Assembly (NCBI GenBank): GCA_035403785.1
Contig: DAONFW010000005.1
Span: 3,045 to 67,044, forward strand
Origin: Minisyncoccota bacterium
GTDB lineage: Bacteria; Patescibacteriota; Minisyncoccia; Phycocordibacterales; UBA9973
Direction: 5' to 3'
Length of the DNA stretch: 64,000 nucleotides
The notes beneath the pieces are model-generated. The model did not search any database and was not told the origin of the DNA. It saw only the letters and a program-made list of their open reading frames with translations. Position numbers and translations under genes: made by a program. Each line of letters starts with the position of its first letter. Positions within the stretch are counted from its first letter, which is position 1. Below, piece after piece: positions 9,096 through 38,887 of this stretch.

Positions 9096-10043
9096 CTATT
9101 TGTCCCAACTAAATCCCCTACCAAAATGGCCCCATTTTGAAGTTTCAGCAAATTTTACTTCATCTAATTTAAGTAAGTTTTTTATACCAGCTGGCGTTAA
9201 ATCATATTTTTCTAAATCTATTTTTTCTTCTTTTCCATCTAGAACAGTCACAGCCATGACTGGTTCTGGTTTACCAATGCAATAAGCTAATTTTACAAAA
9301 GCTTCTTTTGCTTTTCCTGATTTTACAAAATCAACTGCAATCTTTCGAGCAACATAAGCGCCAGATCTATCTACTTTCGTATAATCTTTTCCCGAAAAAG
9401 AACCCCCACCGATTGGAACTTCTGGACCATAATTATCTATTATTAATTTTCTTCCAGACAAACCTGTATCAGCGTCAAAACCACCAACATTCCATTCACC
9501 TGACTGATTAATTAAATATTCTTCAGAATTTATTAAACTTTTTACTAAATCTAATAATTCTGCATTTTTAGTATTTTGAAAACTCACAACTACTGTTTTT
9601 ACTTCTTCGTTTTCTAATGTAACCTGAACTTTCCCATCGTATGGATATTTTTCATAAATTTTCATACACAAATTTCTCGCCAGATCATATTCTCTCGGCA
9701 TCATACTTTCTGTTTCAGAAGTTGCATAACCTTTCATGATTCCTTGATCTCCCGCACCGCCAGTATCAACTCCTCGCGAAATTTCGAAACTTTGCTTTAC
9801 TAAATTTATTTTTACTTCAAAATCCTGATTGACTATTTTTTTTACCAAACTTTCTAAATCTGGATTTCCTAAACTTGTAATCTCGCCATTGATTGTAATC
9901 AAATTGTGTCCACCCATTACTTCTACTGCAACTCTGCTGTTCTTGTCTTCTTTCAAATACGCATCTAAAATAGAATCTGCGATAAAATCACAAATCTTAT
10001 CAGGATGCCCAGGACTAACAAATTCTGCTGTTTTTGTACTCAT
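9096..10043 (-). CDS. metK: S-adenosylmethionine synthetase, a compact 315-aa form.
   Basis: It carries the GHPDKICD motif and GGGSFSGKDYTKVDRSGAYVARKIA, the MetK signature GGGAFSGKDxTKVDRS, and ends in …GHFGRGFSWDK. Confidence 0.85.
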   Translation of the reverse strand: MSTKTAEFVSPGHPDKICDFIADSILDAYLKEDKNSRVAVEVMGGHNLITINGEITSLGNPDLESLVKKIVNQDFEVKINLVKQSFEISRGVDTGGAGDQGIMKGYATSETESMMPREYDLARNLCMKIYEKYPYDGKVQVTLENEEVKTVVVSFQNTKNAELLDLVKSLINSEEYLINQSGEWNVGGFDADTGLSGRKLIIDNYGPEVPIGGGSFSGKDYTKVDRSGAYVARKIAVDFVKSGKAKEAFVKLAYCIGKPEPVMAVTVLDGKEEKIDLEKYDLTPAGIKNLLKLDEVKFAETSKWGHFGRGFSWDK

Positions 10044-10059
10044 AATTTTTGTAATAAAA

Positions 10060-10212
10060 AATCTCTAAATATTTAGAGAAAATGTTTTTCACGTGGACTA
10101 GACGTAAACATATCTCTCCAGTTTTTTAAAACTGGTTGGATTTAGCACCTTACTTTTGCAGGTTGCTGAGCGAGTCATAAAGCCAAATCTCTCGTCGCTC
10201 TCTTGATAACTA
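10060..10212 (-). ncRNA. SAM-I (S-box) riboswitch in the metK 5' leader, with a terminator-type expression platform.
   Basis: The minus strand reads GUUAUCAAGAGAGCGACGAGAGAUUUGGCUUUAUGACUCGCUCAGCAACCUGCAAAAGUAAGGUGCUAAAUCCAACCAG…CUGGAGAGAUAUG. This matches the S-box consensus (cUCUUAUCAAGAGaGG…AUGA…GCAACC…AAGGUGCUAAAUCCaGCAg…GAGAGAU). It is followed by the hairpin UCUCUAAAUAUUUAGAGA plus a U-run ending about 18 nt before the metK ATG. Confidence 0.75.
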
Positions 10213-11798: not shown

Positions 11799-12461
11799 TT
11801 AAATTCCTTCTTTTTTAAGCTCTTCTAGTAATTCTTTTGCTTTTTTAGAAAGTTTACTTGGCGTTTTAACTTTTATTCTAATATACAAATCACCTGATTT
11901 GCCATTTTTTATTTCTTCACCGTAACCTGTCATTTTGAGAGTCTGCCCATTCACGATACCAGCTGGAATTTTTATTTTTACTTCTTTTTTACCGCCGATT
12001 ATTATTTTCTTTTCTGTTCCGAGAATAGAATCAGTTAGAGAAATATTTAACTCTGTTTCCATGTCTCTGCCTCTTGGTGTTCTTTTGTAAAATCCCCCAG
12101 ATCTACTACCACCACCAAAAAATTCAGAAAAAATATCATTCAAATCAAATTCCATACCTCCAGTACCATTTTGTCCAAAACCAGAAAAATCGAAACCGCC
12201 GAAGCCACCAAAACCTCCTTGTTGCGCACCTCCGAATCCTCCTTGCATGTTTTCAAAACCAGCTCCATATTGGTCATATTTTGCCCTCTTTGAGTCATCA
12301 GAAAGAACCTGATAAGCTTCGTTTACCTCTTTAAATTTCTTTTCATCTCCATCTTTTTTGTCAGGATGATATTTGTGTGCGAGTTTATAAAAAGCCTTTT
12401 TAATTTCGTCTTTTGAGGCGTTTTTATTAACTCCTAATGTTTCATAGTAATCTTTTTTCAT
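11799..12461 (-). CDS. J-domain protein (DnaJ-like) with a G/F-rich linker and no CxxCxGxG zinc finger.
   Basis: The J domain reads [32 protein letters not shown] (HPD motif), followed by a GGFGG-rich region. The zinc-finger repeats are absent. Confidence 0.7.
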
Positions 12462-12512: not shown

Positions 12513-14012
12513 TTAAATCATCGGTTCTGCTTCGATATTTTCTTCATCCTCAGAATCTTCTTTATTTCCAACGTAATTTTCTTCTTCAACCTCTTCTGTT
12601 TTTTTACTTTTCTTTCCTTCAATAATAGCTTTTTCTTCTGCGCTTCTAATAATACTTGCTTCTTCTTCGGCTATTAATTTTGCTGCAGCATCTTTTGGAA
12701 TTGTGTATTTTTTTCTAGAAGCTGCTATTATTTCGTCTCTTAAAGATTCATGAGTCGGCGGTAAAACTTTCAAAGTTTCTGCAGAAAACGGATCGTAAGA
12801 TTCTCCATCGATAGTCATTTTTACATACATTTCACCAACCGCTAAGTTAATCATATCTTTCACGCCGAATATCGGATCAAATTCTGGTTTTAATTTTACG
12901 GCATCTTCTCCACCAACTCTAAAGCAAATTACACTTCCGACGTTTCCGAGCACTGCTTGATGAACTTTCGGTAAAATTTGCCCAACATATTGATGCGCCA
13001 TTGTTAAATTTAAACCGTACTTTCTGGCTTCCGATAAAATATTTTCAAAAGTCTGCGTAACGACATTTTGGAACTCGTCTACATATAGATAAAAATCTTT
13101 ACGTTGAGATTCCGGAATTGCTGCACGTTCCATTCCTGCTTGCTTAATTTTTGTTAGAAAGATAGAACCCAAAAAGCTAGAATTTTCTTCACCCAATCTT
13201 CCTTTTGACAGATTAATCAAAATTATTTTCTGCTCGTTCATTAATTTATTGATATCTATTTTATTTTCTTTCTGACCGAAAATATTTCTAAGCAACGGAT
13301 CTGACAAAAATTGTCCCAATTTGTTAACAAGTGGGATAATAGCGTCGTTATCAAATTTTTCAGACCAATCAGCGAATTCTATTGCGAAGAATCTTTTTAC
13401 CATATCATCCTGAATATATTCAACAACTTTTTGTCTGTAATTTCTGTCTGTCAGCATAGAAATCATGCCTCTCATCGTCGCATACGGATAATCCAAAAGC
13501 GCAAGACAAGTGAATCTAAAAACGTGTTCAAGTCTTGGTGTCCAGTTTGCGCCAAATTGTTTTTGAAAAACTTCTATCAATCCCTGCGTAAGTTGGAATT
13601 TAAACATCGGGTCAACGTTGGAAAGCGGATTGAAAGAAGCTGGAAAATTTATATCAGCTGGATCGATTATGCAAACGTCTTCAATTCTCTCTTTTGGAAT
13701 ATAATCCAAAATAGCATCTACTACGTCACCGTGCGGATCTATCAAACACAATCCATGACCATATGTTATATCCTGACGAATAAAAAGCTCAAGAAGCTTC
13801 GTCTTTCCTACTCCAGATTTTCCAATGATATAAAGATGGCGTTTTCTGTCTACCCTTTTTACGCCGAAAATGAATTTCTTTTCTTCAAGAGCAGCAACAT
13901 AGTTGGTTCTTCCAATGAAAGAAACTTCAGCTGGATCAACCTTGCCAAAAACCGGTAATTCCGGTGGTGGTGGAGCATATTTAACTATTTGTACTCTGTT
14001 TTCTCGAGCCAT
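12513..14012 (-). CDS. Soluble VirD4/TraD/TrwB-like (type IV coupling-protein family) P-loop ATPase, paralog 1.
   Basis: A 499-aa ORF. The Walker A motif is YIIGKSGVGKT and the Walker B motif is FYLYVDEFQNV. The C-terminal motif ARKYGLNLTMAHQYVGQI resembles the RKxG…Q motif of VirD4/TraG. There is no N-terminal transmembrane segment, and it is paralogous to 15780-18020. Confidence 0.55.
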   Translation of the reverse strand: MARENRVQIVKYAPPPPELPVFGKVDPAEVSFIGRTNYVAALEEKKFIFGVKRVDRKRHLYIIGKSGVGKTKLLELFIRQDITYGHGLCLIDPHGDVVDAILDYIPKERIEDVCIIDPADINFPASFNPLSNVDPMFKFQLTQGLIEVFQKQFGANWTPRLEHVFRFTCLALLDYPYATMRGMISMLTDRNYRQKVVEYIQDDMVKRFFAIEFADWSEKFDNDAIIPLVNKLGQFLSDPLLRNIFGQKENKIDINKLMNEQKIILINLSKGRLGEENSSFLGSIFLTKIKQAGMERAAIPESQRKDFYLYVDEFQNVVTQTFENILSEARKYGLNLTMAHQYVGQILPKVHQAVLGNVGSVICFRVGGEDAVKLKPEFDPIFGVKDMINLAVGEMYVKMTIDGESYDPFSAETLKVLPPTHESLRDEIIAASRKKYTIPKDAAAKLIAEEEASIIRSAEEKAIIEGKKSKKTEEVEEENYVGNKEDSEDEENIEAEPMI

Positions 14013-14054
14013 AATATCTTTATATTTTAATACATTTTTTGTGTTTTTTCAATC

Positions 14055-15779
14055 CTAGTATATTTCTCTCTTATAACAATCATCGCAATAAGGTTTATAA
14101 CCTTCCAAAGTAGCATGACTACTCAAAATTTCCAAACCACACTTAAAACATTTATCTTTAAAAACCTTAAAATTATTCAAATATTTGAATCTTTCAACTA
14201 TTCTTTCGTATGGAGCAAAAGATGGAATTGCAATGTTTTTTCTTTTATAAAATTCAAATTCTTCTTTTACTATTCTAAAAGGTTTACTCAACGACTCACT
14301 CATAATTCCGACATTTAAAATCTCATCAGAAATATCTTTAATATCATTTTCTATTTCATTAAGATTAATTATTTTTATTTCACTCGATAAGTCAGAATTC
14401 TGATCATACCACCATCCATTCAAATTCAAAACTTCTTCTTTAGAAATATTATATATGATGTTAGAAAGTGAAGCATTATAAGGAAAAGGACTTATAGAAA
14501 AAGAAAAAAATTCTCCATATTCACCATCTGCAAGCATTTTTGATTTTATTTCATCTACTAATTTCCAATACCCTTCTTCTGTATACTGTTTGTTAAAAAC
14601 ACAATATTTAGCATTTACAAGCCCAATACAACCAAAACAATACTGACAATTTTTGCAGTTCATTGTGTACTCACAATCTCTAATTTCTCTACCAAAACTA
14701 GAAAATTTAACATTAAAACAATTATTTCCTACGCCAGAGGTTGCATACAAACTTTCAGCATTTGCCGAAATTGTACAATCATAGCAGTCATTCAATTTTA
14801 TAACAAAATCAACATTCATTAAATTTTCACAATACATCGCCCATGTTGTATTGAAACAGTTTTTAGAGTTTACTAAATAATTTCCAGAAATATTCTGAGA
14901 ATGTTCATTACGAAGAGCTTTGATTGGAAGACTTTTTACTAAATCAGAAAAATTAATTTTGCATTTTTTTAATTCATTTCTGTTACCTAAATTTATTTTA
15001 GAAATTTCTTCAAAATATTGTTCTTTTGTATATTGTTTATTCCAAATGCAATATTTTTTATTTCTTAAATTAACACAACCAAAACAATCATTACAATTTC
15101 TACAATCATAAATAAAACTGCAATCTAGACAATCTTTAGAAAAATAAACAAAATTGCAATTATAACAATTTTCTGGGTAAACTCCTTCGTATATTAAATT
15201 TGTATTTACTGAAACAAGAATATCTAACGAATCTTTTGTTTCCATTGGCCACATACTAAACATTACATTTTCGGCTTTCATTCCACCAAAAACATAAAAA
15301 CAGTTTTTTAACTGGATACCATAAGAAGTATATTGGCTATTTATACTTTCTGGGTTACGGGTCAATGCTGGTTGTGGAGATTTTAAAAAAAGTTTTTTAA
15401 ACTGATCAGAAAAAGAGCCCGAGAAATCGAAATCTACGCCATAATCATTTCCATTTCTATCCCCGTGCCAATAATAATCAAAATCAAAAACAGAAAATTC
15501 TGTTTTTTCTGGTATAGAAGAAATAATTTTCTCGGTATGATTTGGGACATCGCACGGTCTTTTAAATAAAGTTGTATAGTTTACGAACGCCAAGCGTCTT
15601 TGCCTGCGACAGTCATAACACATTTTTGGCTCTGGCACTTTAAATTTTTTAAAAAACTTAATATCATTTTCTGTTATTTCAAATTCATTTTTACATTGAA
15701 CACAATTTTTAAAATGTGGTTTTAAATCAACCAATAAAGATTCAATAGCTTTATCAAATTTAGGAGTCTTAGAAATCAT
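14055..15779 (-). CDS. Cysteine-rich repeat protein with terminal zinc-ribbon-like CxxC pairs. Function unknown.
   Basis: A 574-aa ORF. The N-terminus has CVQC…CYDC and the C-terminus has CFKC…CDDC. There are two internal repeats of the form C.NC..CFGC..L.N.KYC..NKQYT.E.Y. Its start abuts the stop of the upstream ATPase (15779/15780), suggesting translational coupling. Confidence 0.5.
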   Translation of the reverse strand: MISKTPKFDKAIESLLVDLKPHFKNCVQCKNEFEITENDIKFFKKFKVPEPKMCYDCRRQRRLAFVNYTTLFKRPCDVPNHTEKIISSIPEKTEFSVFDFDYYWHGDRNGNDYGVDFDFSGSFSDQFKKLFLKSPQPALTRNPESINSQYTSYGIQLKNCFYVFGGMKAENVMFSMWPMETKDSLDILVSVNTNLIYEGVYPENCYNCNFVYFSKDCLDCSFIYDCRNCNDCFGCVNLRNKKYCIWNKQYTKEQYFEEISKINLGNRNELKKCKINFSDLVKSLPIKALRNEHSQNISGNYLVNSKNCFNTTWAMYCENLMNVDFVIKLNDCYDCTISANAESLYATSGVGNNCFNVKFSSFGREIRDCEYTMNCKNCQYCFGCIGLVNAKYCVFNKQYTEEGYWKLVDEIKSKMLADGEYGEFFSFSISPFPYNASLSNIIYNISKEEVLNLNGWWYDQNSDLSSEIKIINLNEIENDIKDISDEILNVGIMSESLSKPFRIVKEEFEFYKRKNIAIPSFAPYERIVERFKYLNNFKVFKDKCFKCGLEILSSHATLEGYKPYCDDCYKREIY

Positions 15780-18020
15780 TTATTCCAATATCTTTCTTAA
15801 TACATCTTCCGGCACTTCTCTGACCGTTCCCGTTGGAGAAACTGAAGGCTGTGCTTGCGTCTGTGTTTGCGGGGCTGTAGGCGGAGTTTGTTTTACTTCC
15901 TCTTTTTCGGGTTCTTCTTTCAAAATCTTCTCCCTCGGCTGTAGCCCACCTACGGGCGAAGCTTCCTTTTTTGTTTCTACTTCTGGAACTTCTATTTTTT
16001 TATTTACAATATTCTCTTTCTTGGAGATTAGATCTTTCAACTTATTCATCTCCTCTGCCGGCGCTGCTCTGTCTTTCAAATTTATATTTGCAACAGGAGT
16101 TGGTTTTGAGGTTTTTAATTCGTTTAAAGAAACAGCTGAAATCTCTGCTTTATTTTTTTCTTCTTCAGAAATTTTTGCTTCTTTTTTTGTTTCTACTTCT
16201 ACATTTTTTTCTGGGACTTTTTTTATTTCCTGTTTTATTTCAGTCTTTTCTTTGTCTTTGTCTTTGTCTTCCAAAACTTTGTTTTCATTAAGAGTCTTGT
16301 TTAAAATTTCTTTCAAAGCTAAATTTTCTCCCATTATTTTTGGACTCTTTTCTTTTTGTTTATTATTTACAAAAACGCCTTTTATTTTAGAGAAAACATT
16401 TTTCTTTTCATCTCTTTCTCTTTGCACTTGTCTTTGTCCTGCTTCAAATTTTGGTTTACCTTGTTGAAAAGGCATAGTGTCTTTCTGTCCAAATTCAATC
16501 CCTAGGTCAGCTAGTGGTTTAAAATATTTTGACTCGTCATTTCTAATCTGCCTCATCGTACCTTTTACTGGCTTTATTTCACCTGATTTTATTTTTGTTA
16601 TACAGTCTTTACAGTAAACTGGCCTTCCTGGCTCTGGTTTAAATGGGACTTTTGTTTCTTTTGCACAAATAGAACAAACAGCTGTAAATTTTTCAGCGTC
16701 TTCATCTCCAATATTAGATCCACTCCAAGCATTAATTTCCCTTTCTACATCTTCTCTTTTTTTACAATATAAAGCTCTGGAAGACTCGATAACTTGCTTT
16801 TCAATCTCTGGATTCCCCTCAGCCATTGGTGGAAGAGTTTTTGCAGAAAAAGGTCTAGAAGTAATACCGTCTATCATAAGCTTCAAATAAATTTTGTAGT
16901 TTGGCAAAGCAACGATATCCTGCGGGGTAAATTCTGGGTCAAATTCTTTCTCCAAAAAATCAGCGTCTTCTGCACCACACCTGAAAACAACCATCGTTCC
17001 AACGTTTCCGAAAACTGCATCTCGAACAGCAGAACTTTTATCTGAAACAAGCTGCGCTGTATATTGGTGAGCAACAGTAAGATTGAGTCTATATTTTCTA
17101 GCTTCTGAAAGAATTGACGCAAAAGAATCTGTAACGAAATTTTGGAACTCGTCGACATACAAATAAAAGTCTTTACGTTCGTCTTCCGGAATACGCACAC
17201 GCTCCATAGCAGCCAACTGAATTTTTGTAATAATCATACCTCCAAGCAAAGCTGAGTTGTCTTCTCCGATTCTTCCTTTTGAAACGTTAACCAAGAAAAT
17301 TTTCTTTTCATTCATTAAGTCAAAAATATTTATCGTACTTTTTGACTGGCCAACAACGTTTCTTATTATTGATGAAGAAAGAAACTGTCCAACTTTGTTT
17401 TGGATCGGAGCAATAGCTTCATTTCTGAATTTATCTTGCCAAGCTTCATATTCGTGCACCCAAAAAGATTTGATAACCGGATCTTTCAAATTTGAAATAA
17501 TTTTTTGTCTGTAATCCTTGTCTACAAGCAATCTTGGAATACCGAGCATCGTCGTTCCTGGAGTATCAAGTAAAGCTAAAATAGCATTGTTCAAAATGTA
17601 TTCCATTCTGGCTGACCAAGCATTTGCCCAAATTTTAGTAAAAATTCCCATCAAGCCGGAAGCGACAAGATGTTTATATTTCGGATCTGCAATTTCTAAA
17701 ACGTTAAAACCAATATGATAATCTGGATCTGCTGGATTAAAATAAACAACATCTTTTACTCTTTCTGGTGGAATTGCAGAAAGAACAGCTTCTACGTTTT
17801 CTCCATGCGGATCGACTAAACAAACACCATCACCATTTTTGATGTTCTGAATAATCATATTAAACATAAACACAGATTTACCGGTACCAGATTTTCCGAG
17901 AATGTAAACATGTTGGCGTCTGTCTTTACGTTTAATACCAAATAGCTGGTTCTTGTCACGATATGTAGCAAGCCCAAGATACGTAATGTCTTTATTTTGC
18001 GGTATATTTACCGGATTCAT
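15780..18020 (-). CDS. VirD4/TraD-like P-loop ATPase, paralog 2, with a C-terminal zinc ribbon and a Lys/Glu-rich low-complexity tail.
   Basis: A 746-aa ORF. The Walker A motif is YILGKSGTGKS, the Walker B motif is FYLYVDEFQNF, and ARKYRLNLTVAHQYTAQL follows. It then has CSICAKETKVPFKPEPGRPVYCKDC and a KDKDKDKEK / PTAPQTQTQAQP tail. Confidence 0.55.
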   Translation of the reverse strand: MNPVNIPQNKDITYLGLATYRDKNQLFGIKRKDRRQHVYILGKSGTGKSVFMFNMIIQNIKNGDGVCLVDPHGENVEAVLSAIPPERVKDVVYFNPADPDYHIGFNVLEIADPKYKHLVASGLMGIFTKIWANAWSARMEYILNNAILALLDTPGTTMLGIPRLLVDKDYRQKIISNLKDPVIKSFWVHEYEAWQDKFRNEAIAPIQNKVGQFLSSSIIRNVVGQSKSTINIFDLMNEKKIFLVNVSKGRIGEDNSALLGGMIITKIQLAAMERVRIPEDERKDFYLYVDEFQNFVTDSFASILSEARKYRLNLTVAHQYTAQLVSDKSSAVRDAVFGNVGTMVVFRCGAEDADFLEKEFDPEFTPQDIVALPNYKIYLKLMIDGITSRPFSAKTLPPMAEGNPEIEKQVIESSRALYCKKREDVEREINAWSGSNIGDEDAEKFTAVCSICAKETKVPFKPEPGRPVYCKDCITKIKSGEIKPVKGTMRQIRNDESKYFKPLADLGIEFGQKDTMPFQQGKPKFEAGQRQVQRERDEKKNVFSKIKGVFVNNKQKEKSPKIMGENLALKEILNKTLNENKVLEDKDKDKEKTEIKQEIKKVPEKNVEVETKKEAKISEEEKNKAEISAVSLNELKTSKPTPVANINLKDRAAPAEEMNKLKDLISKKENIVNKKIEVPEVETKKEASPVGGLQPREKILKEEPEKEEVKQTPPTAPQTQTQAQPSVSPTGTVREVPEDVLRKILE

Positions 18021-18052
18021 TACTTTTAATTATACCAAATCAAACAAAATAT

Positions 18053-18115
18053 AAAAAGCGTTTTTCGAGTAGTCTGGTGAATTTACCCCAGGACCAAAGA
18101 AAAACGCTTTTTATT
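18053..18115 (-). terminator. Intrinsic terminator downstream of dnaK.
   Basis: The arm aagcgttttt pairs with aaaaacgctt 36 nt downstream, followed by a U-run on the minus strand. Confidence 0.45.
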
Positions 18116-18138
18116 TTTAGTTTTATAATTTATTCTTT

Positions 18139-20037
18139 TTATTCTGCTTTGTCGTTTTTGTCTTTATCTTCAGCAACTTCAGCTTCTTGAATTTCTGGTT
18201 CTTGAGCTTCTGCTGTTGTTGAACTTGAAGTTTGACCGGCCTTACTCATAGCTTCGCCAATTTTAGACATTTCAGAAGATAGCTCTTCTGTTGCTTTCTT
18301 GATGGCTTCTAGATCATTCCCTTCTTTCACCGTTTTCAAATTAGAAATTTTAGAAGTTACTCCAGTTTTTACATCTTCTGGAATCTTAGTCTCATTTTCT
18401 TTTACAGATTTTTCAGCTGTGTACAAAATCATTTCAGCTGTATTTTTCACTTCAATCAATTCTTTCTTCTTCTTATCTTCTTCAGCATGAAGTTCAGCTT
18501 CTTGTTGCATTCTCTTGATATCTTCATCTTTCAATCCAGAACTTGCTTCTATTCTGATAGACTGCACTTTTCCTGAAGCTTTATCTTGAGCTTTTACGTT
18601 TAAGATTCCGTTTGCATCAACATCGAAAGTAACTTCAACTTGTGGCATGCCTCTTGGTGCTGGTGGAATTCCATCCAAAATAAATCTTCCAAGAGATTTG
18701 TTATCATTTGCCATTGGTCTTTCACCTTGCGTTATGTGAATTTCCACAGAAGTCTGATTATCTGCCGCAGTTGAGAAAACTTGAGACTTAGAAGTTGGAA
18801 TTGTAGTATTCTTTTCTATCAACTTAGTTGCTACACCTCCCAAAGTTTCTATTCCAAGAGAAAGCGGAATCACGTCTAGTAACAAGACATCTCGCACATC
18901 TCCTTGCAAAACTCCAGCTTGCACCGCTGCGCCCAATGCAACTACTTCGTCAGGATTGATAGAAAGATTTGGAAGTTTTCCAAATAATTTTTCAACAGCA
19001 CTTACAATCGCTGGCATTCTTGTCTGTCCACCAACCATTATGATTTCATTTATTTCATTCATTTTGAATGGTGATGCTTCAAGTGCACGTTTCGTGATTT
19101 CAATAGATCTATCTATGTATTCTTTTGCCAAACTTTCTAAAGTTGCTCTGGTCATTCTCATCAACAAATGTTTTGGTCCAGTAGCATCCGAAGTAATAAA
19201 CGGAATATTTATTTCAGCTTCCAAAGTAGTAGAAAGTTCATGTTTAGCTTTTTCTGCTGCTTCTTTCAATCTCTGGTGTGCTAGCGGATCTTTTGTAACA
19301 TCAATTCCAGATTCTTTTTTAAATTCTTCTGCAATCCAATTTATAACTTTTCTATCAATATCGCCTCCACCCATGTGTGAGTCTCCGTCTGTAGATTTCA
19401 CTTCTATTACATCATCACCGATTTCAAGCACAGATACGTCAAAAGTTCCACCTCCGAAGTCATACACAACTACTTTTTCGTTTTTCTTTTTATCAAAACC
19501 GTAAGCAAGCGCTGCGGCTGTCGGCTCGTTGATTATTCTTTTTACATCAAGTCCGGCAATTAAACCAGCGTCTTTTGTAGCTTTTCTCTGCGCATCATTA
19601 AAGTAAGCCGGCACTGTGATAACAGCTTCTGTAATTTTTTCTCCAGTTTTTGCTTCAACATCTGTTTTAATTTTTTGCAAAATCATTGCAGAAATTTCTT
19701 CTGGTCTGTAAAATTTGTCAGCCATTTTTACTTTCACGCCACCGTCTTCGCCTTGCTCAATCTTGAACGGCGCAGAAGTTTTGTCTTTCTGAACACCCGG
19801 ATCATCAAATCTGTGACCCATGTATCTTTTCATTTCTGACAAAGTATTTTCTGGATTTGTCACTGCCTGTCTTTTTGCTAATAATCCAACTATTCTGTCG
19901 CCATTTTTTGTGGTAGCAACAACAGATGGCGTTGTTCTGTTTCCTTCAACGTTTTCAACTATTTTCGGAGAACCTCCTTCAATAATTGCAACTGCTGAGT
20001 TTGTTGTACCCAAATCTATACCTATTATTTTACTCAT
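18139..20037 (-). CDS. dnaK: Chaperone DnaK (Hsp70).
   Basis: A 632-aa ORF starting [22 protein letters not shown], with [10 protein letters not shown]-type motifs throughout. Confidence 0.95.
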
Positions 20038-20612: not shown

Positions 20613-21146
20613 ATGCAAGAAAAAAACGCTAAAAAACCCAATATTCAGAAAGATATTTTGAAAATATTAGACGGCAAACCGGCTGTTTCTGTTAAATCTT
20701 TAAAACATGGAAAAGATCAAAAGACAAGCTATGCGATAGCTCGTTCAATAAAAAATCTAGTAGATTCTGGTTGCGCAGAAATGATAAATTCTGACAATCA
20801 GAGTTATGTTAAACTCACACAGAAAGGAAAAAACAAATTAAACAACATTCGCCTACTTGCAGACGATGCACTTGTTTCTACAAACTGGGACGGTTTTTGG
20901 CGAATCGTAATTTTGGATTTACCAGAAGAAAGAAAATCCGAACGTGAAGCTCTAAGATATTTACTCAAGAAAGCAAATTTTATTTGTATAAAAAATACGG
21001 TTTGGATCTCGCCATTTCCATATGAACATCTTTTTACTAATATCAAAAAAGATTTGAATTTCACCACAGAAATCATGATTATAGTTTCTAACAAATTAGA
21101 TCCAGAAACAAATCTTGCTTTCCTTGAAGCAGTAAAAAATCAGTAA
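20613..21146 (+). CDS. Winged-helix transcriptional regulator, PaaX-like.
   Basis: A 177-aa ORF. The N-terminal wHTH reads ILKILDGKPAVSVKSL…ARSIKNLVDSG. The C-terminal WDGFWRIVILDLPEERKSEREALRYLLKKANFICIKNTVWISPFP resembles the WDGxW…VWI motif of the PaaX C-terminal domain. Confidence 0.35.
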   Translation: MQEKNAKKPNIQKDILKILDGKPAVSVKSLKHGKDQKTSYAIARSIKNLVDSGCAEMINSDNQSYVKLTQKGKNKLNNIRLLADDALVSTNWDGFWRIVILDLPEERKSEREALRYLLKKANFICIKNTVWISPFPYEHLFTNIKKDLNFTTEIMIIVSNKLDPETNLAFLEAVKNQ

Positions 21147-22960: not shown

Positions 22961-23584
22961 TTATTCTCCTTTATATTCAAAAACATTCACTCTAGCAGCA
23001 CGAATCACTCTTTCACCGAGTTTGTATCCTTTTTGAGTTACTTCAGCAATTTTGTGATCGTTTTCTTTTTTGTCAGTTTGTACCATTTCGATAGACTGAT
23101 GAATGTTATGGTCAAAACTTTCACCAACTTCTCCAACTGGCTTAACTCCAAACTCTTCCAAAACAGATTTCATTTGAACGTAAATATATTCAACTCCTTT
23201 CCGCCAATTTTCATCAACTTTTTCCCAAGCTGATTTATTAGCGAAAGCCATTTCAAAACTATCCATTACAGTCAAAAAGCGCATTATGATTCTCTCACGC
23301 ATTGCTTCAGAAAAGTTGGCTTTTCTTTCTTCTTCTTGTTTTTTATAATTAACAAATTCAGCTCTTTCTTTTTGCCAGCCTGTTAGATATTCTTCTTTTT
23401 CTTTCTTGCACTGCTTCAAATCAGCTCTTAATTTCTTAAGCGTTTTTTTCAAATCTTCCTCTCCGTCTTCGTTAAATTCAAATTCAACGACTTCTGTGTC
23501 GTCTTCTTCCGGAATTTCTTTATTTTCAGGCATTTTAAGCTCTAAATCTTCGGTTTTTTCTTCTTTTTTGTCTGATTTACTCAT
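22961..23584 (-). CDS. grpE: Nucleotide exchange factor GrpE.
   Basis: A 207-aa ORF with an acidic N-terminus, a coiled coil (…YLTGWQKERAEFVNYKK…) and a C-terminal beta domain (GYKLGERVIRAARV). Confidence 0.8.
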   Translation of the reverse strand: MSKSDKKEEKTEDLELKMPENKEIPEEDDTEVVEFEFNEDGEEDLKKTLKKLRADLKQCKKEKEEYLTGWQKERAEFVNYKKQEEERKANFSEAMRERIIMRFLTVMDSFEMAFANKSAWEKVDENWRKGVEYIYVQMKSVLEEFGVKPVGEVGESFDHNIHQSIEMVQTDKKENDHKIAEVTQKGYKLGERVIRAARVNVFEYKGE

Positions 23585-36325: not shown

Positions 36326-37603
36326 TTACATCGGTAAGTTAGTAGGCGGCGCAGCCTCTTTAGATTCAATACGTTCAAGGGTAGGAACTTTGAGCATTTG
36401 ACCTGGAAAATGCCAAATCGTGGCTAGCTCTTCTGTGTTTAAGACAAAAATCTCATGATGTCTAAATTTTGGAAAAAAAATAGATATCGGCCAAGGAATT
36501 CTAATTTTATGCCTAAGTGGCGGATAAAAGAAAGATCTTTCTCGATATTCAGTCAGAACTCTATTTTTCAATTTATACATTGAGCTAGTAGTAAATTGCC
36601 ATGGATAATCAAACTGCGTTGAATTTATACGATTAAAGCTATTCAAATACGGTGAAGTATATTGTCTAAAAACCAAACGCAAATCTTTCTGTCTTCTTCT
36701 ATTATTAGCAAAAACATCTTTCTTCGCTATATAGCAAGCTCTGATACCACAGTCAAAACCCAATTTCAACATTTTTTCTGTTACCCCATCAAGTAATGGC
36801 CCCATAAAGTCAGGAGTACGTCCAGATTTCAAAATACCTGGAGATTTATCAGCTCTTGTTTCAAATTTAGTATAAGGATATGCTATTCTTTCCAATTCAA
36901 GCTGAGATTCTTTTATCCAATCATGTGTACCTTTTACCCCTTTTGTTTTATATTTTTTCTGTGACGCTGTAACTACTATTTGCAACCACATTTGTTCTCC
37001 TTTTTGAATTGAAGCAAAAAGCTCAACCACAGGAGCGATAGGATCAATTTTGTACTCTTCGTCAGGATCTTTGTCCATTCCATAACTAGCATAAGTTCTA
37101 ATTGGATAAGCGTCAGGTTTGGTCAAACCGAATTCACAACCCCAAAGATTCCACTCACTTTTTGGTGTGATTTCATCTACTCCAAGAGTATAATCTTCTG
37201 CTACTCTCACCTGAGCTTGAGGATATTGTGCATAGATTTGAGTTTCAATTAATTGTTTAACACGAGAAGGTGTCCTGATGAAAAAATGTACTTGTCCATC
37301 TATTGATGCTATTTCAAGTGAAAACCAAAACCAAACTGCACCAATCCAATATTTTTCAAAAAGTCCTTTTTTACTCAACATGTAAAGAGCGTTGGTAAAA
37401 AACAGCTCCATGCTTTTTGGTGATTTCAAAACTTCTCTTGGTGGTACCACTTCAAGCAAAACCCATTCAATCCCGGCGATAAAATTTGTTCTTACATAAT
37501 GCACCCATAGCTTCCACGCTGTCCAACCTAAAAAAACTGTAGCCGCTATTGGCAAGAGCCACAGAATAATATTGTAAAAAAAAGTAAACAATGCATTTAA
37601 CAT
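36326..37603 (-). CDS. Hypothetical membrane-anchored protein.
   Basis: A 425-aa ORF with two N-terminal transmembrane segments and a large soluble domain. No family was recognised. Confidence 0.3.
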   Translation of the reverse strand: MLNALFTFFYNIILWLLPIAATVFLGWTAWKLWVHYVRTNFIAGIEWVLLEVVPPREVLKSPKSMELFFTNALYMLSKKGLFEKYWIGAVWFWFSLEIASIDGQVHFFIRTPSRVKQLIETQIYAQYPQAQVRVAEDYTLGVDEITPKSEWNLWGCEFGLTKPDAYPIRTYASYGMDKDPDEEYKIDPIAPVVELFASIQKGEQMWLQIVVTASQKKYKTKGVKGTHDWIKESQLELERIAYPYTKFETRADKSPGILKSGRTPDFMGPLLDGVTEKMLKLGFDCGIRACYIAKKDVFANNRRRQKDLRLVFRQYTSPYLNSFNRINSTQFDYPWQFTTSSMYKLKNRVLTEYRERSFFYPPLRHKIRIPWPISIFFPKFRHHEIFVLNTEELATIWHFPGQMLKVPTLERIESKEAAPPTNLPM

Positions 37604-37858: not shown

Positions 37859-38887
37859 TTATACAGCTGTATAAAGTCCATTTTTATTCTTTTTGAAATA
37901 TTTAGGATTTTGAATATTTACAAGAATAGTATTTTTCTTGAAATATCTTTCTTTCATTACTTTTTCAACAATTTGTTCTTTAGATAGAGGTCCTTCTCTT
38001 TTTAGGATATCTCTAATTACATCGCGAGCAACTCCAGCCTTATAACCCCATTCTGTAAGCGCATACATTCCTCTTCCTACCAAAACGAATCTTGGATCTT
38101 TGATAAGTTCATTATGACAAGTTGCTGAATGTGTTTTTCTTCCAAAAGTTTTTGTGATTGCTTCTGCAACTTCTCTGAAATGCATAGGAGATCCATGTTT
38201 TCTCATAACCAAGAAAGCATAATCTTTTACTCCTCTTGTGTGTACGTTTGGCGAAGTTGCCTTTCCCCATTCTCCTAATGGATTTTTTGAAATTTTCTTT
38301 GACATTGCCAACCATCTTCGAGCAACTTCCTCATCTCTATATTCTTCTGTAATATCTTGCATGTGACCAAAGAAATTTTTTATCAATTCTGCTTCTGGAA
38401 TAAGATCCTCATCTTTCATATTAGTGAAAAGTTTCTTTAATGAATCATGAACTTTTCCCGCTACTTCATCATCAATACTCCAGCGAGGATGAAAATGATC
38501 GTCTTCCCTGTGCTTTTTAAAAGAATCTCCTAGTACTAGATAAAAGTGAATATGATTCTGAGTTGATTTGTCTTTTGTGATATGCCCCAAAAGATGTTCT
38601 TCACTCACAACAGAACCTAAACTTTGAATTAATTTTTTTAGTTCATCAAAAACAGCCTGTTCTGCTTTGTAAGCATCAGATTTCTTTATAGACTTTAGAG
38701 CAACATCTTCGATCTGACGAACACGTTCTCGAGTTATGTTGTACTTCTTACCGATTTCTTCAAGGGTCTTTCTTTCAGCATCAGTATTCAAACCAAAACG
38801 ACTCATTATCACATCTGAAGCTCTGTCCTGTAAATGTGAGGTGATTCTTTTGGTAACTTGTTTTGGTTTAAATGATATTGTTGACAT
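37859..38887 (-). CDS. DNA-binding protein with an N-terminal sigma-70 region-4-like HTH and a C-terminal HARE-HTH-like domain.
   Basis: The N-terminus reads …TLEEIGKKYNITRERVRQIEDVALKSIKK (region 4.2-like). The C-terminus reads …MHFREVAEAITKTF…DPRFVLVGRGMYALTEWGY, which resembles HARE-HTH. Confidence 0.3.
   Translation of the reverse strand: MSTISFKPKQVTKRITSHLQDRASDVIMSRFGLNTDAERKTLEEIGKKYNITRERVRQIEDVALKSIKKSDAYKAEQAVFDELKKLIQSLGSVVSEEHLLGHITKDKSTQNHIHFYLVLGDSFKKHREDDHFHPRWSIDDEVAGKVHDSLKKLFTNMKDEDLIPEAELIKNFFGHMQDITEEYRDEEVARRWLAMSKKISKNPLGEWGKATSPNVHTRGVKDYAFLVMRKHGSPMHFREVAEAITKTFGRKTHSATCHNELIKDPRFVLVGRGMYALTEWGYKAGVARDVIRDILKREGPLSKEQIVEKVMKERYFKKNTILVNIQNPKYFKKNKNGLYTAV

Follow-up and report, generated by a model that had tools for sequence, protein, structure and literature searches.

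What are two paralogous VirD4/TraD-like ATPases and a cysteine-rich protein doing between dnaK and a J-domain gene in a Patescibacteria genome? The block lies in a 64,000-nucleotide stretch of DNA that was analysed as a whole (the window). An initial annotation of its sequence had offered three possibilities: a translocation or secretion motor, the remnant of a conjugation-like element, or a chaperone-linked machine. The three open reading frames on which it rested are all present on the minus strand, and the features used below are as follows.

11799..12461, minus strand: short DnaJ-like protein, 220 aa, downstream neighbour of the block (domain matches)
12513..14012, minus strand: ATP2, paralog of ATP1, 499 aa (identity to ATP1, Pfam, phrog_5156)
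14055..15779, minus strand: CYS, Cys-rich cytoplasmic protein, 574 aa, 31 Cys
14076..14150, minus strand: C-terminal CxxC-x17-CxxC finger of CYS, C544, C547, C565 and C568 (homologue alignments)
15609..15704, minus strand: N-terminal zinc ribbon of CYS, C26-x2-C29 ... C54-x2-C57-R (homologue alignments)
15780..18020, minus strand: ATP1, T4CP-like P-loop ATPase, 746 aa (Pfam, phrog_5156, motifs)
16593..16694, minus strand: zf_Tbcl_2 / TIGR04272 zinc finger of ATP1, aa 443-476 (profile matches)
18021..18138, minus strand: dnaK-ATP1 intergenic region with an inverted repeat, a T-run and TGGTATAAT (direct sequence reading)
18139..20037, minus strand: dnaK, upstream neighbour of ATP1
36326..37603, minus strand: partner, 425 aa, one N-terminal membrane helix (about aa 1-30) followed by a cytoplasmic domain
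37859..38887, minus strand: F6, sigma-70 region 4 and HARE-HTH protein (Pfam)

As had been described, the block stands between dnaK and the J-domain gene, and the ATG of CYS at 15779 abuts the TAA of ATP1 (15780-15782). The two ATPases are indeed paralogs (46% identity across 413 aa, E 3e-135) and the reported motifs were found in both: Walker A (GKSGTGKS at aa 42-49 of ATP1, GKSGVGKT at aa 64-71 of ATP2), the Walker B stretch FYLYVDEFQN (aa 285-294 and 307-316) and ARKYxLNLTxAHQY (aa 307-320 and 329-342). ATP1 is composed of an ATPase domain (aa 1-430), a treble-clef zinc finger of the form CxxC-x17-CxxC and a K/E/P-rich tail of 266 aa; ATP2 lacks the finger and ends in an acidic C-terminal tail. 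The Pfam family TrwB_AAD_bind matched both proteins above its gathering score (ATP1 39.9 bits, ATP2 27.8 bits), as did DUF87 and TraG-D_C, and T4SS-DNA_transf did so for ATP2. The E-values for ATP1 were 3e-10 (TrwB_AAD_bind), 7e-9 (DUF87), 5e-6 (TraG-D_C) and 1.9e-13 (zf_Tbcl_2). Among the other profiles proposed as a check, those of HerA matched and FtsK_SpoIIIE did not. The finger was recognised by PF23477 (50.3 bits, cutoff 27) and TIGR04272 (52.2 bits, cutoff 36), and homologues of ATP1 retain its domain set.

The nearest solved sequence relative of the ATPases is TrwB, and by their profiles and motifs both appear to descend from conjugation coupling proteins (T4CPs). Like VirD4, TrwB and TraD (PF10412, PF02534, PF12696), they combine a P-loop domain with Walker A and B, an RK..L....Q motif and a TraG-D_C region, and the insert of some 240 residues between their two Walker motifs aligns with TrwB_AAD_bind. 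Unlike T4CPs, they have no N-terminal membrane domain, score far under every NCBIfam TraD/VirD4 cutoff, and are duplicated chromosomal core genes conserved at the level of DnaK with no relaxase or T4SS genes nearby; ATP1 has in addition its zinc finger and low-complexity tail. No well-characterised family with a known stand-alone function was found to which they could be assigned. Between T4CP and VirB4, the sequence profiles favour T4CP (TIGR00929, with a cutoff of 643 bits, gave only 18.6, and CagE_TrbE_VirB did not match).

The ATPases had also been called soluble. This holds in so far as no transmembrane segment was found in 19-residue windows (hydropathy maxima of 1.13 for ATP1, 1.22 for ATP2 and 0.86 for CYS), but a homologous, membrane-anchored domain is encoded by the partner gene, 18 kb from the block in the same window. 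The top structural match of the partner's cytoplasmic domain was a VirB4 chain, and the partner aligns with the N-terminal extension of a fused ATPase (L056:14283-16514, E 9e-14). The best profile match of both ATPases was phrog_5156 (7e-60 for ATP1, 8e-54 for ATP2), a profile of 824 positions; the partner matches its N-terminal part (1e-4), and thus a different part from the ATPases. In phrog_5156 are Bacillus phage proteins, namely phage G gp156, a 906-aa 'VirD4 component-like protein' of SP8 and those of CampHawk, CP-51, JL and Shanette. Unlike the window genes these are phage-encoded and apparently fused, and SPO1-like phages probably carry the fused N-domain/ATPase form; no CYS homologue was found in any phage record.

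A fused form is also present in Peregrinibacteria/Gracilibacteria-type loci and in the Bacillus plasmid pBM69, next to a relaxase gene. The ATPase of the 833-aa pBM69 'DUF87 domain-containing protein' has ~26% identity over 92% of ATP2 (E 9e-25), and its N-domain is homologous to the partner (hhalign 92.7%, E 4e-7), with which it has an ...EE.A.I..P... end motif in common. The order of N-domain and ATPase is that of the Peregrinibacteria-type fusion. The gene lies directly upstream of a replication-relaxation (Replic_Relax, relaxase-family) gene, with conjugal-transfer genes and another ATP-binding protein downstream. Whereas pBM69 encodes a single fused polypeptide within a conjugation gene set, the window has two genes 18 kb apart, on a chromosome and without conjugation genes.

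In most of the distant lineages the two halves are neighbours. The partner gene was directly upstream of the ATPase gene in 33 of 41, the order F6-partner-ATPase was kept in 28 of 57, and eight loci found with CYS as seed had the partner adjacent to and upstream of an ATPase. We therefore predict that the partner is the anchor and the N-terminal-domain half of a split ATPase. Stand-alone partners possess an N-terminal transmembrane helix; none was found in the fused ATPases of Peregrinibacteria/Gracilibacteria-type loci, so that membrane anchoring is not universal. Together, partner and ATPase rebuild the two-domain layout of VirB4/TrwK (about 800 aa), although the ATPases have no VirB3, VirB6 or VirB8 neighbours. 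For TraJ of pIP501, a T4CP, membrane anchoring via a separate small protein, TraI, has been proposed (PMC12857230). That cytoplasmic T4CP with a separately encoded anchor is comparable in architecture; TraI is small and has two transmembrane domains, unlike the partner, and TraJ/TraI serve plasmid conjugation.

The gene between the ATPases belongs to a Patescibacteria family that falls into 4,666 clusters when grouped at 50% identity, and for which no Pfam or PDB relatives were found. CYS proteins have about 33 Cys each. The one in the window starts with a zinc ribbon, continues with two beta-solenoid segments (12-residue rungs with CxxC ladders) and ends in a C-terminal finger. The four Cys of the ribbon are invariant among 64 homologues, and so are all four of the C-terminal finger in the homologue alignments. 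The ribbon motif resembles PF13451 zf_Tbcl (CxxC...CxxCR), which also matches the C-terminal region of a CYS paralog with a score below threshold, and PF23477 is annotated (precomputed) in the homologue P0028. The finger is of the CxxC-x17-CxxC type common to CYS and ATP1; aa 443-476 of ATP1 clearly belong to the zf_Tbcl_2/TIGR04272 treble clefs, and the CYS C-terminus has their exact spacing. These zinc modules cover <15% of the protein, and no known relative was found for the remainder (two solenoids of 12-residue rungs, a GEYGEFF motif). The paralogs, which usually stand in co-directional tandem arrays, form orthologous groups that are ancient and constant in length: for 152 of 168, a copy from a different genome is closer than every copy from the same locus, a pattern unusual for secreted effectors. 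Some arrays are interrupted by ORF6N-domain and nucleotidyltransferase genes, and a gene for CutA1 (divalent-cation tolerance protein) recurs beside ATP2 and CYS arrays.

An ATPase gene was present in 31 of 80 CYS-seeded loci, where about 2 would be expected by chance if a genome of ~1 Mb has two ATPase genes, an enrichment of about 15-fold. In 22 of these loci CYS and ATPase were directly adjacent. All neighbouring ATPase-CYS pairs were co-directional (28/28, median gap 52 bp), as were all CYS-CYS pairs (107/107, median gap 1 bp), and the linkage occurs in loci labelled Paceibacteria-type and Gracilibacteria/Peregrinibacteria-type despite their different ATPase architectures. The block, seen at first as an insertion between dnaK and a J-domain gene, is not isolated: the arrangement recurs in many genomes, and the block is one copy of a module spread across much of Patescibacteria.

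Conservation of the full trio is looser. Orthologous loci have anything from no CYS gene to five or more of them between or around the ATPases; the close relative L082 has the order dnaK-ATP1-ATP2-dnaJ with none between the ATPases, and in 17 distant loci no CYS gene was found beside the ATPase (at least 4 kb on both sides, flanks up to 9 kb). Conversely, more than half of the CYS-seeded loci had no ATPase within the fetched flanks, and many CYS genes lie away from ATPases at fixed housekeeping positions, several beside RuvX, IleRS or PilM genes. Those observations favour a purely positional linkage, in which the ATPases and partner would act alone, for example as the coupling protein of a Patescibacterial T4SS, and CYS would do something unrelated in the cytoplasm, for instance bind or store metal, or be a family of enzymes or scaffolds. 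The recurrence of CutA1 and the high Cys content fit as well. We regard this as unlikely in view of the enrichment, the direct, short-gap and co-directional adjacency in differently labelled groups, and the finger type common to CYS and ATP1.

Between the same genome pairs, ATPase-domain identity was 81-89% for ATP1 and 86-90% for ATP2, and that of DnaK 76-86%; ATP2 orthologues in other genomes have 69-90% identity. The ATPase domains are thus conserved at least as strongly as DnaK. The genes around the module are housekeeping genes, no relaxase, VirB4, pilus, integrase, transposase or T4SS genes were found nearby, and no composition shift was found at the block. The module looks like core cell machinery and not like a leftover mobile element. 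The suggestion of a conjugation remnant is left unsupported by these results, and the pilus or secretion genes looked for among the neighbours were not there.

It is accordingly highly improbable that the ATPases were left behind by an integrated conjugative element, or that they belong to an anti-phage defence with CYS proteins as diversified sensors. Both ATPases do match PADLOC mad8 (1e-13) and HerA profiles, some arrays contain the ORF6N-domain and nucleotidyltransferase genes, and ATPase homologues occur in phages and plasmids. The mad8 score, however, is not above generic P-loop domain matches; the positions are stable, the distribution is uniform and core, and the CYS paralogs are not fast-diversifying.

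In Patescibacteria, 5,713 VirD4-like homologues have been counted in 2,918 genomes, only 148 of them near virB4, and the authors raised the possible exaptation of such orphans (PMC12102498). That work only counts orphan T4CP homologues, and no description of the ATP1/ATP2/CYS trio as a system was found, in agreement with the initial impression that the arrangement was not a described system.

A translocation or secretion motor stays the most plausible type of function. The version that we prefer, tentatively and as something short of probable, is a membrane-docked, split motor of T4CP origin that has the CYS proteins as clients. On the observed homologies, split and fused architectures, gene linkage and strong conservation we would build the following scheme, in which the oligomers, their docking, the role of CYS as client, and the identity and direction of whatever is moved are all putative. 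The ancestor would have been a monoderm conjugation coupling ATPase with a VirB4-NTD-like N-terminal domain followed by a T4CP-type ATPase, a form that the Bacillus plasmid protein and the Peregrinibacteria/Gracilibacteria-type ATPases still have, as SPO1-like phages probably do. In the window lineage it would have split into the membrane-anchored N-domain protein (36326-37603) and a cytoplasmic ATPase, whose duplication would have given ATP1 with its zinc finger and charged tail and ATP2 with its acidic tail. By analogy with other T4CP/VirB4 ATPases, both could form a ring motor on the anchor at the cytoplasmic membrane. The zinc-ribbon/beta-solenoid CYS proteins (~575 aa), co-transcribed, would be cargo or cargo adaptors, possibly recognised via the treble-clef finger common to CYS and ATP1, and the output may pass a T4SS-like channel encoded elsewhere in these genomes. 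The ATPase loci without CYS, the CYS genes remote from ATPases, the fused ATPases without a transmembrane helix and the constancy of the ancient CYS paralogs count against this scheme. So does Southlakia, in which the T4CP homologue was reported to be non-essential for epibiotic growth, unlike other T4SS genes (PMC12102498).

Type VII secretion has a membrane-associated FtsK-like ring ATPase, EccC/EssC, encoded beside arrays of paralogous substrate genes. The likeness to our module, an FtsK/HerA superfamily ATPase beside paralog arrays, would be functional only, the module having no known homology to Esx/WXG100 substrates, EccB, EccC or EccD.

Two further points weigh on the client scheme: zinc-bound folded domains make CYS an awkward cargo for an unfolding translocase, and conservation of the ATPases at DnaK level is easier to reconcile with a universal substrate, nucleic acid for example, than with a varied set of protein clients. 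T4CPs and FtsK/HerA relatives are DNA pumps, and partner and ATPase could form a housekeeping DNA or RNA translocase, serving for example to take up DNA as a source of nucleotides, to segregate chromosomes or to clear them at division. The finger and charged tail of ATP1 would then bind nucleic acid, and CYS proteins would be nucleic-acid-binding accessories or DNA mimics, not cargo. The ATPase finger detected even in distant lineages (38 of 57 loci) argues for this, as do the conserved upstream neighbour F6, a DNA-binding protein, and the two or three treble-clef zinc modules and mildly acidic solenoid (pI about 6.2) of CYS. Weak NCBIfam matches to CedD, an archaeal DNA-translocating ATPase, point the same way but are limited to the Walker A region and far under cutoff. 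With no FtsK_SpoIIIE or gamma domain, no competence genes nearby, and the many ancient CYS paralogs of a reduced genome left unexplained, we hold this alternative to be rather doubtful, if a serious one.

There remains the chaperone neighbourhood. The 220-aa J protein has a J domain, a G/F region and a partial DnaJ_C domain; the domain search did not match the DnaJ zinc finger, as had been noted, and within the window, the scope of the claim that it is the only J-domain protein, it was the sole J-domain match. The ATPases could be an unfoldase or disaggregase working with DnaK, GrpE and this zinc-finger-less DnaJ, CYS supplying the missing zinc-dependent substrate holding. The interleaving of ATP1, ATP2 and CYS with grpE, dnaK and dnaJ, with CYS copies between grpE and dnaK and also dnaK and dnaJ (L046, L053, L067, L085, L086, L101), speaks for such a machine. 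This synteny is limited to the window's clade, among close relatives whose ATP1 identity is 81% or more; outside it the partner gene precedes the ATPases, and the arrays have different neighbours. Between dnaK and ATP1, moreover, lie a hairpin with arms at about 18112-18099 and 18066-18053, a T-run behind it, and TGGTATAAT, a consensus-level match to a -10-like element at 18037-18029, 8 nt ahead of the ATP1 ATG, although promoter-like sites are not enriched relative to shuffles. A terminator or attenuator and a separate promoter may lie in this spacer. A CIRCE element was looked for and not found, the CYS motif CxxCxxCFGC differs from the DnaJ CxxCxGxG repeat, and we know of no chaperone in the T4CP/VirB4 clade. 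The chaperone-linked machine is thus only weakly supported and, in our estimate, very unlikely: the placement between dnaK and dnaJ is a gene order particular to this clade, and the proposed split motor does not need it.

On the minus strand the genes follow the order dnaK, ATP1, CYS, ATP2, DnaJ-like gene and polytopic membrane ORF, where ATP1 and ATP2 are ATPases resembling type IV coupling proteins (T4CPs) and CYS is a Cys-rich protein. These genes, and the separately located gene of a membrane-anchor protein called here the partner, are as follows.

18139-20037, minus strand: dnaK
15780-18020, minus strand: ATP1, 746 aa
14055-15779, minus strand: CYS, 574 aa
12513-14012, minus strand: ATP2, 499 aa
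11799-12461, minus strand: DnaJ-like gene, 220 aa
11189-11785, minus strand: polytopic membrane ORF, 198 aa, 13 bp after the DnaJ-like gene
36326-37603, minus strand: partner, 425 aa

The ATG of CYS directly abuts the stop codon of ATP1, and the two ATPases are 46% identical over 413 residues (E 3e-135) and share the Walker A, Walker B and ARKYxLNLTxAHQY motifs. The initial annotation, which had described two paralogous P-loop ATPases without N-terminal transmembrane (TM) segments around a 574-aa Cys-rich protein, was accurate on each of these points: the maximal 19-residue hydropathy was 1.13 for ATP1 and 1.22 for ATP2, and no membrane-spanning hydrophobic stretch was found by hydropathy in ATP1, ATP2 or CYS. 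At the domain level ATP1 and ATP2 belong to the T4CP family, with scores of 39.9 and 27.8 bits for TrwB_AAD_bind (Pfam gathering score 20.5), 26.8 and 22.7 for TraG-D_C (cutoff 22) and 36.6 and 26.7 for DUF87 (PF01935, cutoff 23.2), as well as 27.6 bits for T4SS-DNA_transf in ATP2 (cutoff 20.1). None of the curated NCBIfam cutoffs for TraD, VirD4 or VirB4 was reached, the scores being far below them (SXT_TraD 44-54 bits against 366, conju_CD1115 32-47 against 250, TraD_Ftype 23 against 521), and the closest solved sequence was TrwB, a weak match (E 6.5e-5). The ATPases differ from VirB4 (TIGR00929 18.6 bits against a cutoff of 643, no match to PF03135, CagE_TrbE_VirB), and neither the FtsK_SpoIIIE motor nor the gamma domain was matched in Pfam or NCBIfam at E <= 0.01. 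They have the central DUF87 domain of HerA-type helicases, a domain-level feature common to T4CPs and VirB4, but no nuclease partner such as NurA was found among the recurrent neighbours of 80 CYS-seeded loci and the N-domain of the partner resembles VirB4/EccE and not the HAS barrel. Residues 443-476 of ATP1 form a CxxC-x17-CxxC treble-clef finger (TIGR04272, 52.2 bits, cutoff 36; PF23477 zf_Tbcl_2, 50.3 bits, cutoff 27), followed by a K/E/P-rich tail of 266 residues; ATP2 ends in an acidic tail.

Both ATPases also matched PADLOC mad8 at 1e-13, which would place them in the MADS system or among defence HerA proteins. This membership was rejected, since the context is one of housekeeping genes and no accompanying defence genes were found; CYS and the neighbours had no PADLOC match. 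A defence or mobile-element role ranks low. In the PLSDB search the plasmid-borne protein closest to ATP2 is encoded on a Sulfitobacter mediterraneus plasmid (NZ_CP081110.1, 99994-101181), is 38% identical over the ATPase domain only (E 3e-84), and is surrounded by transposase and recombinase genes on this alphaproteobacterial replicon; it may reflect horizontal transfer.

A T4CP carries an N-terminal TM domain that anchors the hexamer, whereas ATP1 and ATP2 lack one and the TM helix is supplied by the separate partner gene. In 8 of the CYS-seeded loci a protein of about 450 aa with an N-terminal membrane helix is encoded just before ATP1 or ATP2 (gene order secD-secF-F6-partner-[small ORF]-ATPase); the F6 protein combines sigma-70 region 4 with a HARE-HTH domain. 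The partner of the window has one TM segment (about aa 1-30) and 4,273 homologues, 56% to 87% identical among the best 120, which carry the precomputed tag PF26449. It had no match in NCBIfam or in Pfam (in a version without PF26449), its alignment found nothing in a profile search of the PDB, tblastn found no match among 72,556 plasmids, and no mention of PF26449 was found in the literature. In Peregrinibacteria/Gracilibacteria-type loci a single ATPase of about 745 aa bears a 290-aa N-terminal extension homologous to the partner, which is why ORF clustering joined the ATPases to the partner proteins; residues 106-424 of the partner align to 52-299 of one such fused ATPase (L056:14283-16514, E 9e-14). 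Split and fused N-domain/ATPase architectures both exist.

Matches to phage and plasmid proteins fit a protein that has been split. The two ATPases align with positions 382-804 of phrog_5156, a phage profile of 824 positions (E 7e-60 for ATP1, 8e-54 for ATP2), and the partner matches positions 79-201 (E 1e-4); its members include gp156 of phage G and a 906-aa 'VirD4 component-like protein' of SPO1-like Bacillus phages. Plasmid pBM69 of Bacillus methanolicus encodes an 833-aa 'DUF87' protein with a related ATPase domain (26% identity, E 9e-25) and an N-domain homologous to the partner (hhalign 92.7%, E 4e-7) that ends, similarly to the partner's, in an ...EE.A.I..P... motif. Directly after its gene comes a replication-relaxation (relaxase-family) gene, and conjugal-transfer genes and another ATP-binding protein are encoded downstream; pLS20-type relaxases have been described in Firmicutes (PMC5313138). 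The fused extension and the phrog_5156 and pBM69 matches show the ATPases and partner of the window to be the counterpart of a coupling ATPase of monoderm conjugation, divided between an anchor/N-domain gene and an ATPase gene. According to a 2025 review, a separately encoded anchor has been proposed for the pIP501 coupling protein TraJ, held at the membrane by TraI (PMC12857230).

SPO1-like phages and phage G encode phrog_5156 proteins of 800-900 aa (in Bacillus phage SP8 at 99766-102486), so that a coupling-protein-like ATPase, under a profile spanning both the partner-like N-domain and the ATPase, is kept by lytic phages. In four loci an ORF of 170-257 aa without Pfam match lies between the partner gene and ATP2, with no detectable homologue in the window:

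L016:2052-2573
L028:2174-2686
L058:1498-2271
L070:1933-2520

CYS had no match in Pfam, NCBIfam or PADLOC, none by tblastn among 50,697 phage records, and only chance LIM-like matches (E >= 0.06) when 64 homologues were used in a sequence-profile search of the PDB. It is identical to a protein from a Candidatus Paceibacterota metagenome-assembled genome and has more than 4,500 homologues in a 90%-identity protein database; the best 120 are nearly all 570-585 aa long, all names are 'hypothetical' except one 'CxxC-x17-CxxC domain-containing protein', and the sources are Paceibacterota or other Patescibacteria without exception. A profile search of 1.84 billion cluster representatives (50% identity) gave 4,666 clusters at E <= 1e-3 and 2,022 at E <= 1e-30. 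In alignments of 21 and 64 homologues, C26, C29, C54 and C57 of an N-terminal ribbon and C544, C547, C565 and C568 of a C-terminal CxxC-x17-CxxC finger are invariant, and a [DN]CxNCxxCFGC[VI]xL motif, present twice, and a GEYGEFF motif are conserved. The finger has the exact spacing C544-x2-C547-x17-C565-x2-C568, but CYS did not match the TIGR04272 or PF23477 profiles at E <= 0.01, and a paralogue reached 21.3 bits with the CxxC-x17-CxxC profile, under the cutoff. The AlphaFold2 model was confident (pLDDT 85, pTM 0.86) and places two beta-solenoid segments between the terminal zinc modules. Cysteines recur every 12 residues (205/217/229, 208/220/232/244 and 369/381/393), which points to narrow 12-residue rungs with CxxC ladders. 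Foldseek returned nothing at E < 0.2 and generic solenoids only; the fold combination is thus without a characterised relative.

To survey the family, 80 loci were fetched from one-genome-per-species contigs with the CYS alignment as query, and genes were counted by tblastn and ORF clustering. As in the second survey below, these are the best-scoring 80 of several hundred, so that the counts describe samples and not the phylum; ORFs were called mechanically with table 11, under which Gracilibacteria-type recoding could break some. Taxon labels, taken from record titles (a few look like mis-binning), were Paceibacterota, Nomura-, Giovannoni-, Kuenen-, Gribaldo-, Staskawicz-, Lipton-, Sungii-, Brenner- and Moraniibacteria, Gracilibacteria, Peregrinibacteria, Peribacteria and others. 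Within 1.08 Mb there were 224 CYS genes, with at least two copies in 54/80 loci, at least four in 24/80 and up to nine in succession. An ATPase was found in 31/80 loci, against about 2/80 expected by chance if a genome of about 1 Mb has two ATPase genes; both types occurred in 11/80, and an ATPase gene directly adjoined CYS in 22/80. Neighbouring pairs were co-directional without exception (107/107 CYS-CYS, median gap 1 bp; 28/28 ATPase-CYS, median gap 52 bp). The linkage of CYS arrays to ATPases is strong and phylogenetically broad, and the block noticed in the initial annotation is both real and, over the two sets of 80 loci, more general than first reported. No other gene family recurred in more than 9 of the 80 loci, whose neighbours include IleRS, RuvX, NUDIX, CutA1, a DedA-like protein, PilM, SecDF and glycosyltransferases.

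The paralogues are ancient. Recent tandem duplication was rejected, as 152 of 168 CYS copies are closer to a copy at another genome's locus than to any copy of their own locus (median best identity 53% across loci, 41% within). Some hold fixed positions away from ATPases (RuvX-CYS-CYS-tRNA_bind-DedA-PilM; ...-CYS-IleRS). The window CYS's own orthologues in loci L001 (70% identity) and L002 (62%) do not adjoin an ATPase, so the paralogue found between the ATPases is not fixed.

A second set of 80 metagenome loci, fetched with the ATP1/ATP2 alignment and screened with the proteins of the window only, separates close relatives (ATP1 at least 81% identical) from 57 distant loci at 53-63% identity. 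Upstream sequence was long enough in 41 of the distant loci, and in 33 of these the partner gene immediately precedes the ATPase; F6 is present in 28/57, the ATPase zinc finger was detected in 38/57 and ATP2 was seen once; this pattern points to an old core of (F6)-partner-ATPase with zinc finger. Of the 17 distant loci flanked by 4 kb or more on either side, none held CYS; of the loci of at least 63% identity with large flanks, 7/8 did. From these counts, ATP1/ATP2 duplication and CYS arrays go together in Paceibacteria-type lineages, and in Gracilibacteria/Peregrinibacteria-type loci the fused ATPase, too, occurs with CYS arrays. In every comparable genome pair, conservation of the ATPase domains equals or exceeds that of DnaK (ATP1 81-89%, ATP2 86-90%, DnaK 76-86% identity), and the ATPases behave as core genes.

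The close relatives have the chaperone operon interleaved with the ATPase/CYS module, as do the CYS-seeded loci L023, L046, L053 and L067:

L082: dnaK-ATP1-ATP2-dnaJ, no CYS between
L083: ATP1-CYS-CYS-ATP2-dnaJ
L085: CYSx3-PaaX-dnaK-ATP1-CYS-ATP2-dnaJ
L086 and L101: grpE-CYS-PaaX-dnaK-...-ATP1-...-ATP2-...-dnaJ

Conservation of the trio, proposed as a check in the initial annotation, is seen in a recurrent CYS-ATPase adjacency but not in L082, where the ATPases have no CYS between them. The flanking J protein has a DnaJ domain (aa 4-63) and a partial DnaJ_C (aa 134-214), with nothing else detected (TIGR02349 181.9 bits against a cutoff of 377); as noted from the sequence, its CxxCxGxG zinc-finger domain was not detected with Pfam or NCBIfam. 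The 198-aa polytopic membrane protein had no Pfam or NCBIfam match. A chaperone-linked machine had been suggested: the dnaK link is present, but it is limited to close relatives, so the embedding is confined to the window's clade and this reading ranks low.

As a whole the module is a variant, so far unexplained, of the coupling ATPase, a known machine part, and is linked to a very large family of uncharacterised proteins. It is no remnant of conjugation, and its DnaK link is local. The suggestion of a conjugation-like remnant does not agree with core-gene behaviour in a housekeeping context; relaxase and T4SS genes (VirB4 and others) were found neither in the 64-kb window nor among the gene families that recur in the 80 CYS-seeded loci. 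On the favoured reading, which is inferred, ATP1 and ATP2 would form a ring on the membrane-anchored N-domain protein, with CYS proteins as clients, that is cargo or adaptors, recognised via the treble-clef finger common to CYS and ATP1; the output would be transport across the membrane, possibly through a T4SS-like channel encoded elsewhere. Several points count against this reading. The fused ATPases have no TM helix. ATPases occur with no CYS gene nearby in distant lineages and in L082, and many CYS genes for their part have no linked ATPase. The constraint on CYS length and sequence is atypical of effectors, and a nucleic-acid substrate would suit the extreme conservation of the ATPases. 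Two rivals are therefore taken seriously: that the ATPases are a nucleic-acid motor, which that conservation suits, and that the CYS-ATPase linkage is without direct function, which the unlinked CYS genes and the CYS-free ATPase loci favour. We consider it improbable, at odds well short of even, that Patescibacteria have a hitherto unrecognised export or delivery pathway in which a split, T4CP-derived ATP1/ATP2 motor on a VirB4-NTD-like membrane anchor recognises the CYS family and hands it to the cell surface or, through the essential T4SS-like channel, into the host; were that the case, the cargo long sought at the epibiont-host interface would be the CYS family.

Patescibacteria account for a large part of bacterial diversity; their genomes are tiny, and they live mostly attached to host cells, with which they exchange material. 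The module bears on their orphan VirD4-like ATPases. A 2025 census counted 5,713 VirD4-type homologues in 2,918 Patescibacteria genomes, 148 of them near virB4, with about two VirD4-like genes per genome unlinked to the T4SS; their role was left open and exaptation 'cannot be ruled out' (PMC12102498). In Southlakia the T4CP homologue was not essential and other T4SS genes were (PMC12102498); the genetics paper on Southlakia makes no mention of T4CP, cysteine or zinc in its main text. No description of the CYS family, the CYS-ATPase linkage or the split anchor, nor of an ATPase plus Cys-rich system in Patescibacteria/CPR, was found in the literature, in line with the earlier remark that the arrangement was not recognised as a described system. 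New for the orphan ATPases are the separately encoded membrane-anchor half, the DnaK-level conservation and the tight link to a predicted zinc-binding solenoid family of about 575 aa without annotation, Pfam model or structural relative. Up to nine CYS genes per locus and two ATPases in reduced genomes probably mean a central role, and the module gives a concrete protein set for the few cultivable Patescibacteria.

The gaps within the block (ATP1-CYS 0 bp, CYS-ATP2 42 bp, ATP2-dnaJ 51 bp) would fit co-transcription. The 118-bp dnaK-ATP1 spacer (18021-18138, minus strand) has a long-loop inverted repeat, AAAAAGCGTTTTTC...GAAAAACGCTTTTT, then a T-run, and a TGGTATAAT match 8 nt before the ATP1 ATG that would give a nearly leaderless transcript. 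These suggest a terminator or attenuator and a separate promoter, as consensus-level matches only, promoter-like sites not being enriched over shuffles. No CIRCE heat-shock operator was found in the window. GC content in the window is low (about 30-36%) and shows no break, and horizontal insertion of the block was rejected on this flat composition; further CYS or ATPase copies were not present elsewhere in the window. Its large ORFs encode DnaB, CysRS, AlaRS, HisRS, Pol III alpha, BipA, YceG, an ABC exporter, an AI-2E transporter, an LTD/PKD surface protein and a NosD-like beta-helix protein with a peptidoglycan-binding domain, and two (27908-29305 and 29315-30490) have no Pfam match; the pilus or secretion neighbours that had been considered were not found among the large ORFs scanned. 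The only Rfam match was a SAM riboswitch (RF00162, 62 bits, 10107-10212, minus strand), outside the block and upstream of a metK-like gene (9096-10043, minus strand).

A CutA1 gene (divalent-cation tolerance, PII-like) recurs directly beside ATP2 or within CYS arrays (L016, L028, L030, L037, L044, L073, L076; e.g. L006:4110-4451) and may be relevant to how the Cys-rich proteins handle metal. In Gracilibacteria/Peregrinibacteria-type arrays, CYS genes are separated in places by ORF6N-domain genes on the opposite strand and, in one case, by an MNT-like nucleotidyltransferase gene; these look like small mobile or toxin-antitoxin-like insertions:

L048:7432-7977, minus strand
L055:1586-2167 and 14819-15418, minus strand
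L062:3715-4050, minus strand
L065:3379-3921 and 5684-6229, minus strand
L056:11534-12136

The downstream neighbour of CYS in several genomes is an IleRS-like gene (L034:11671-15264, 1197 aa) with a His_Phos_1 (histidine-phosphatase) domain inserted in the catalytic domain. Beside dnaK, on the opposite strand, lies a PaaX_M gene (Cas2-like fold; 20613-21146, plus strand), kept there in L046, L053, L067, L085, L086 and L101 and also found upstream of ATP2 in L041 and L047. The interval between grpE (22961-23584) and dnaK is filled in the window by an ABC exporter gene (21156-22934, minus strand) and holds CYS genes instead in L053, L067, L086 and L101.
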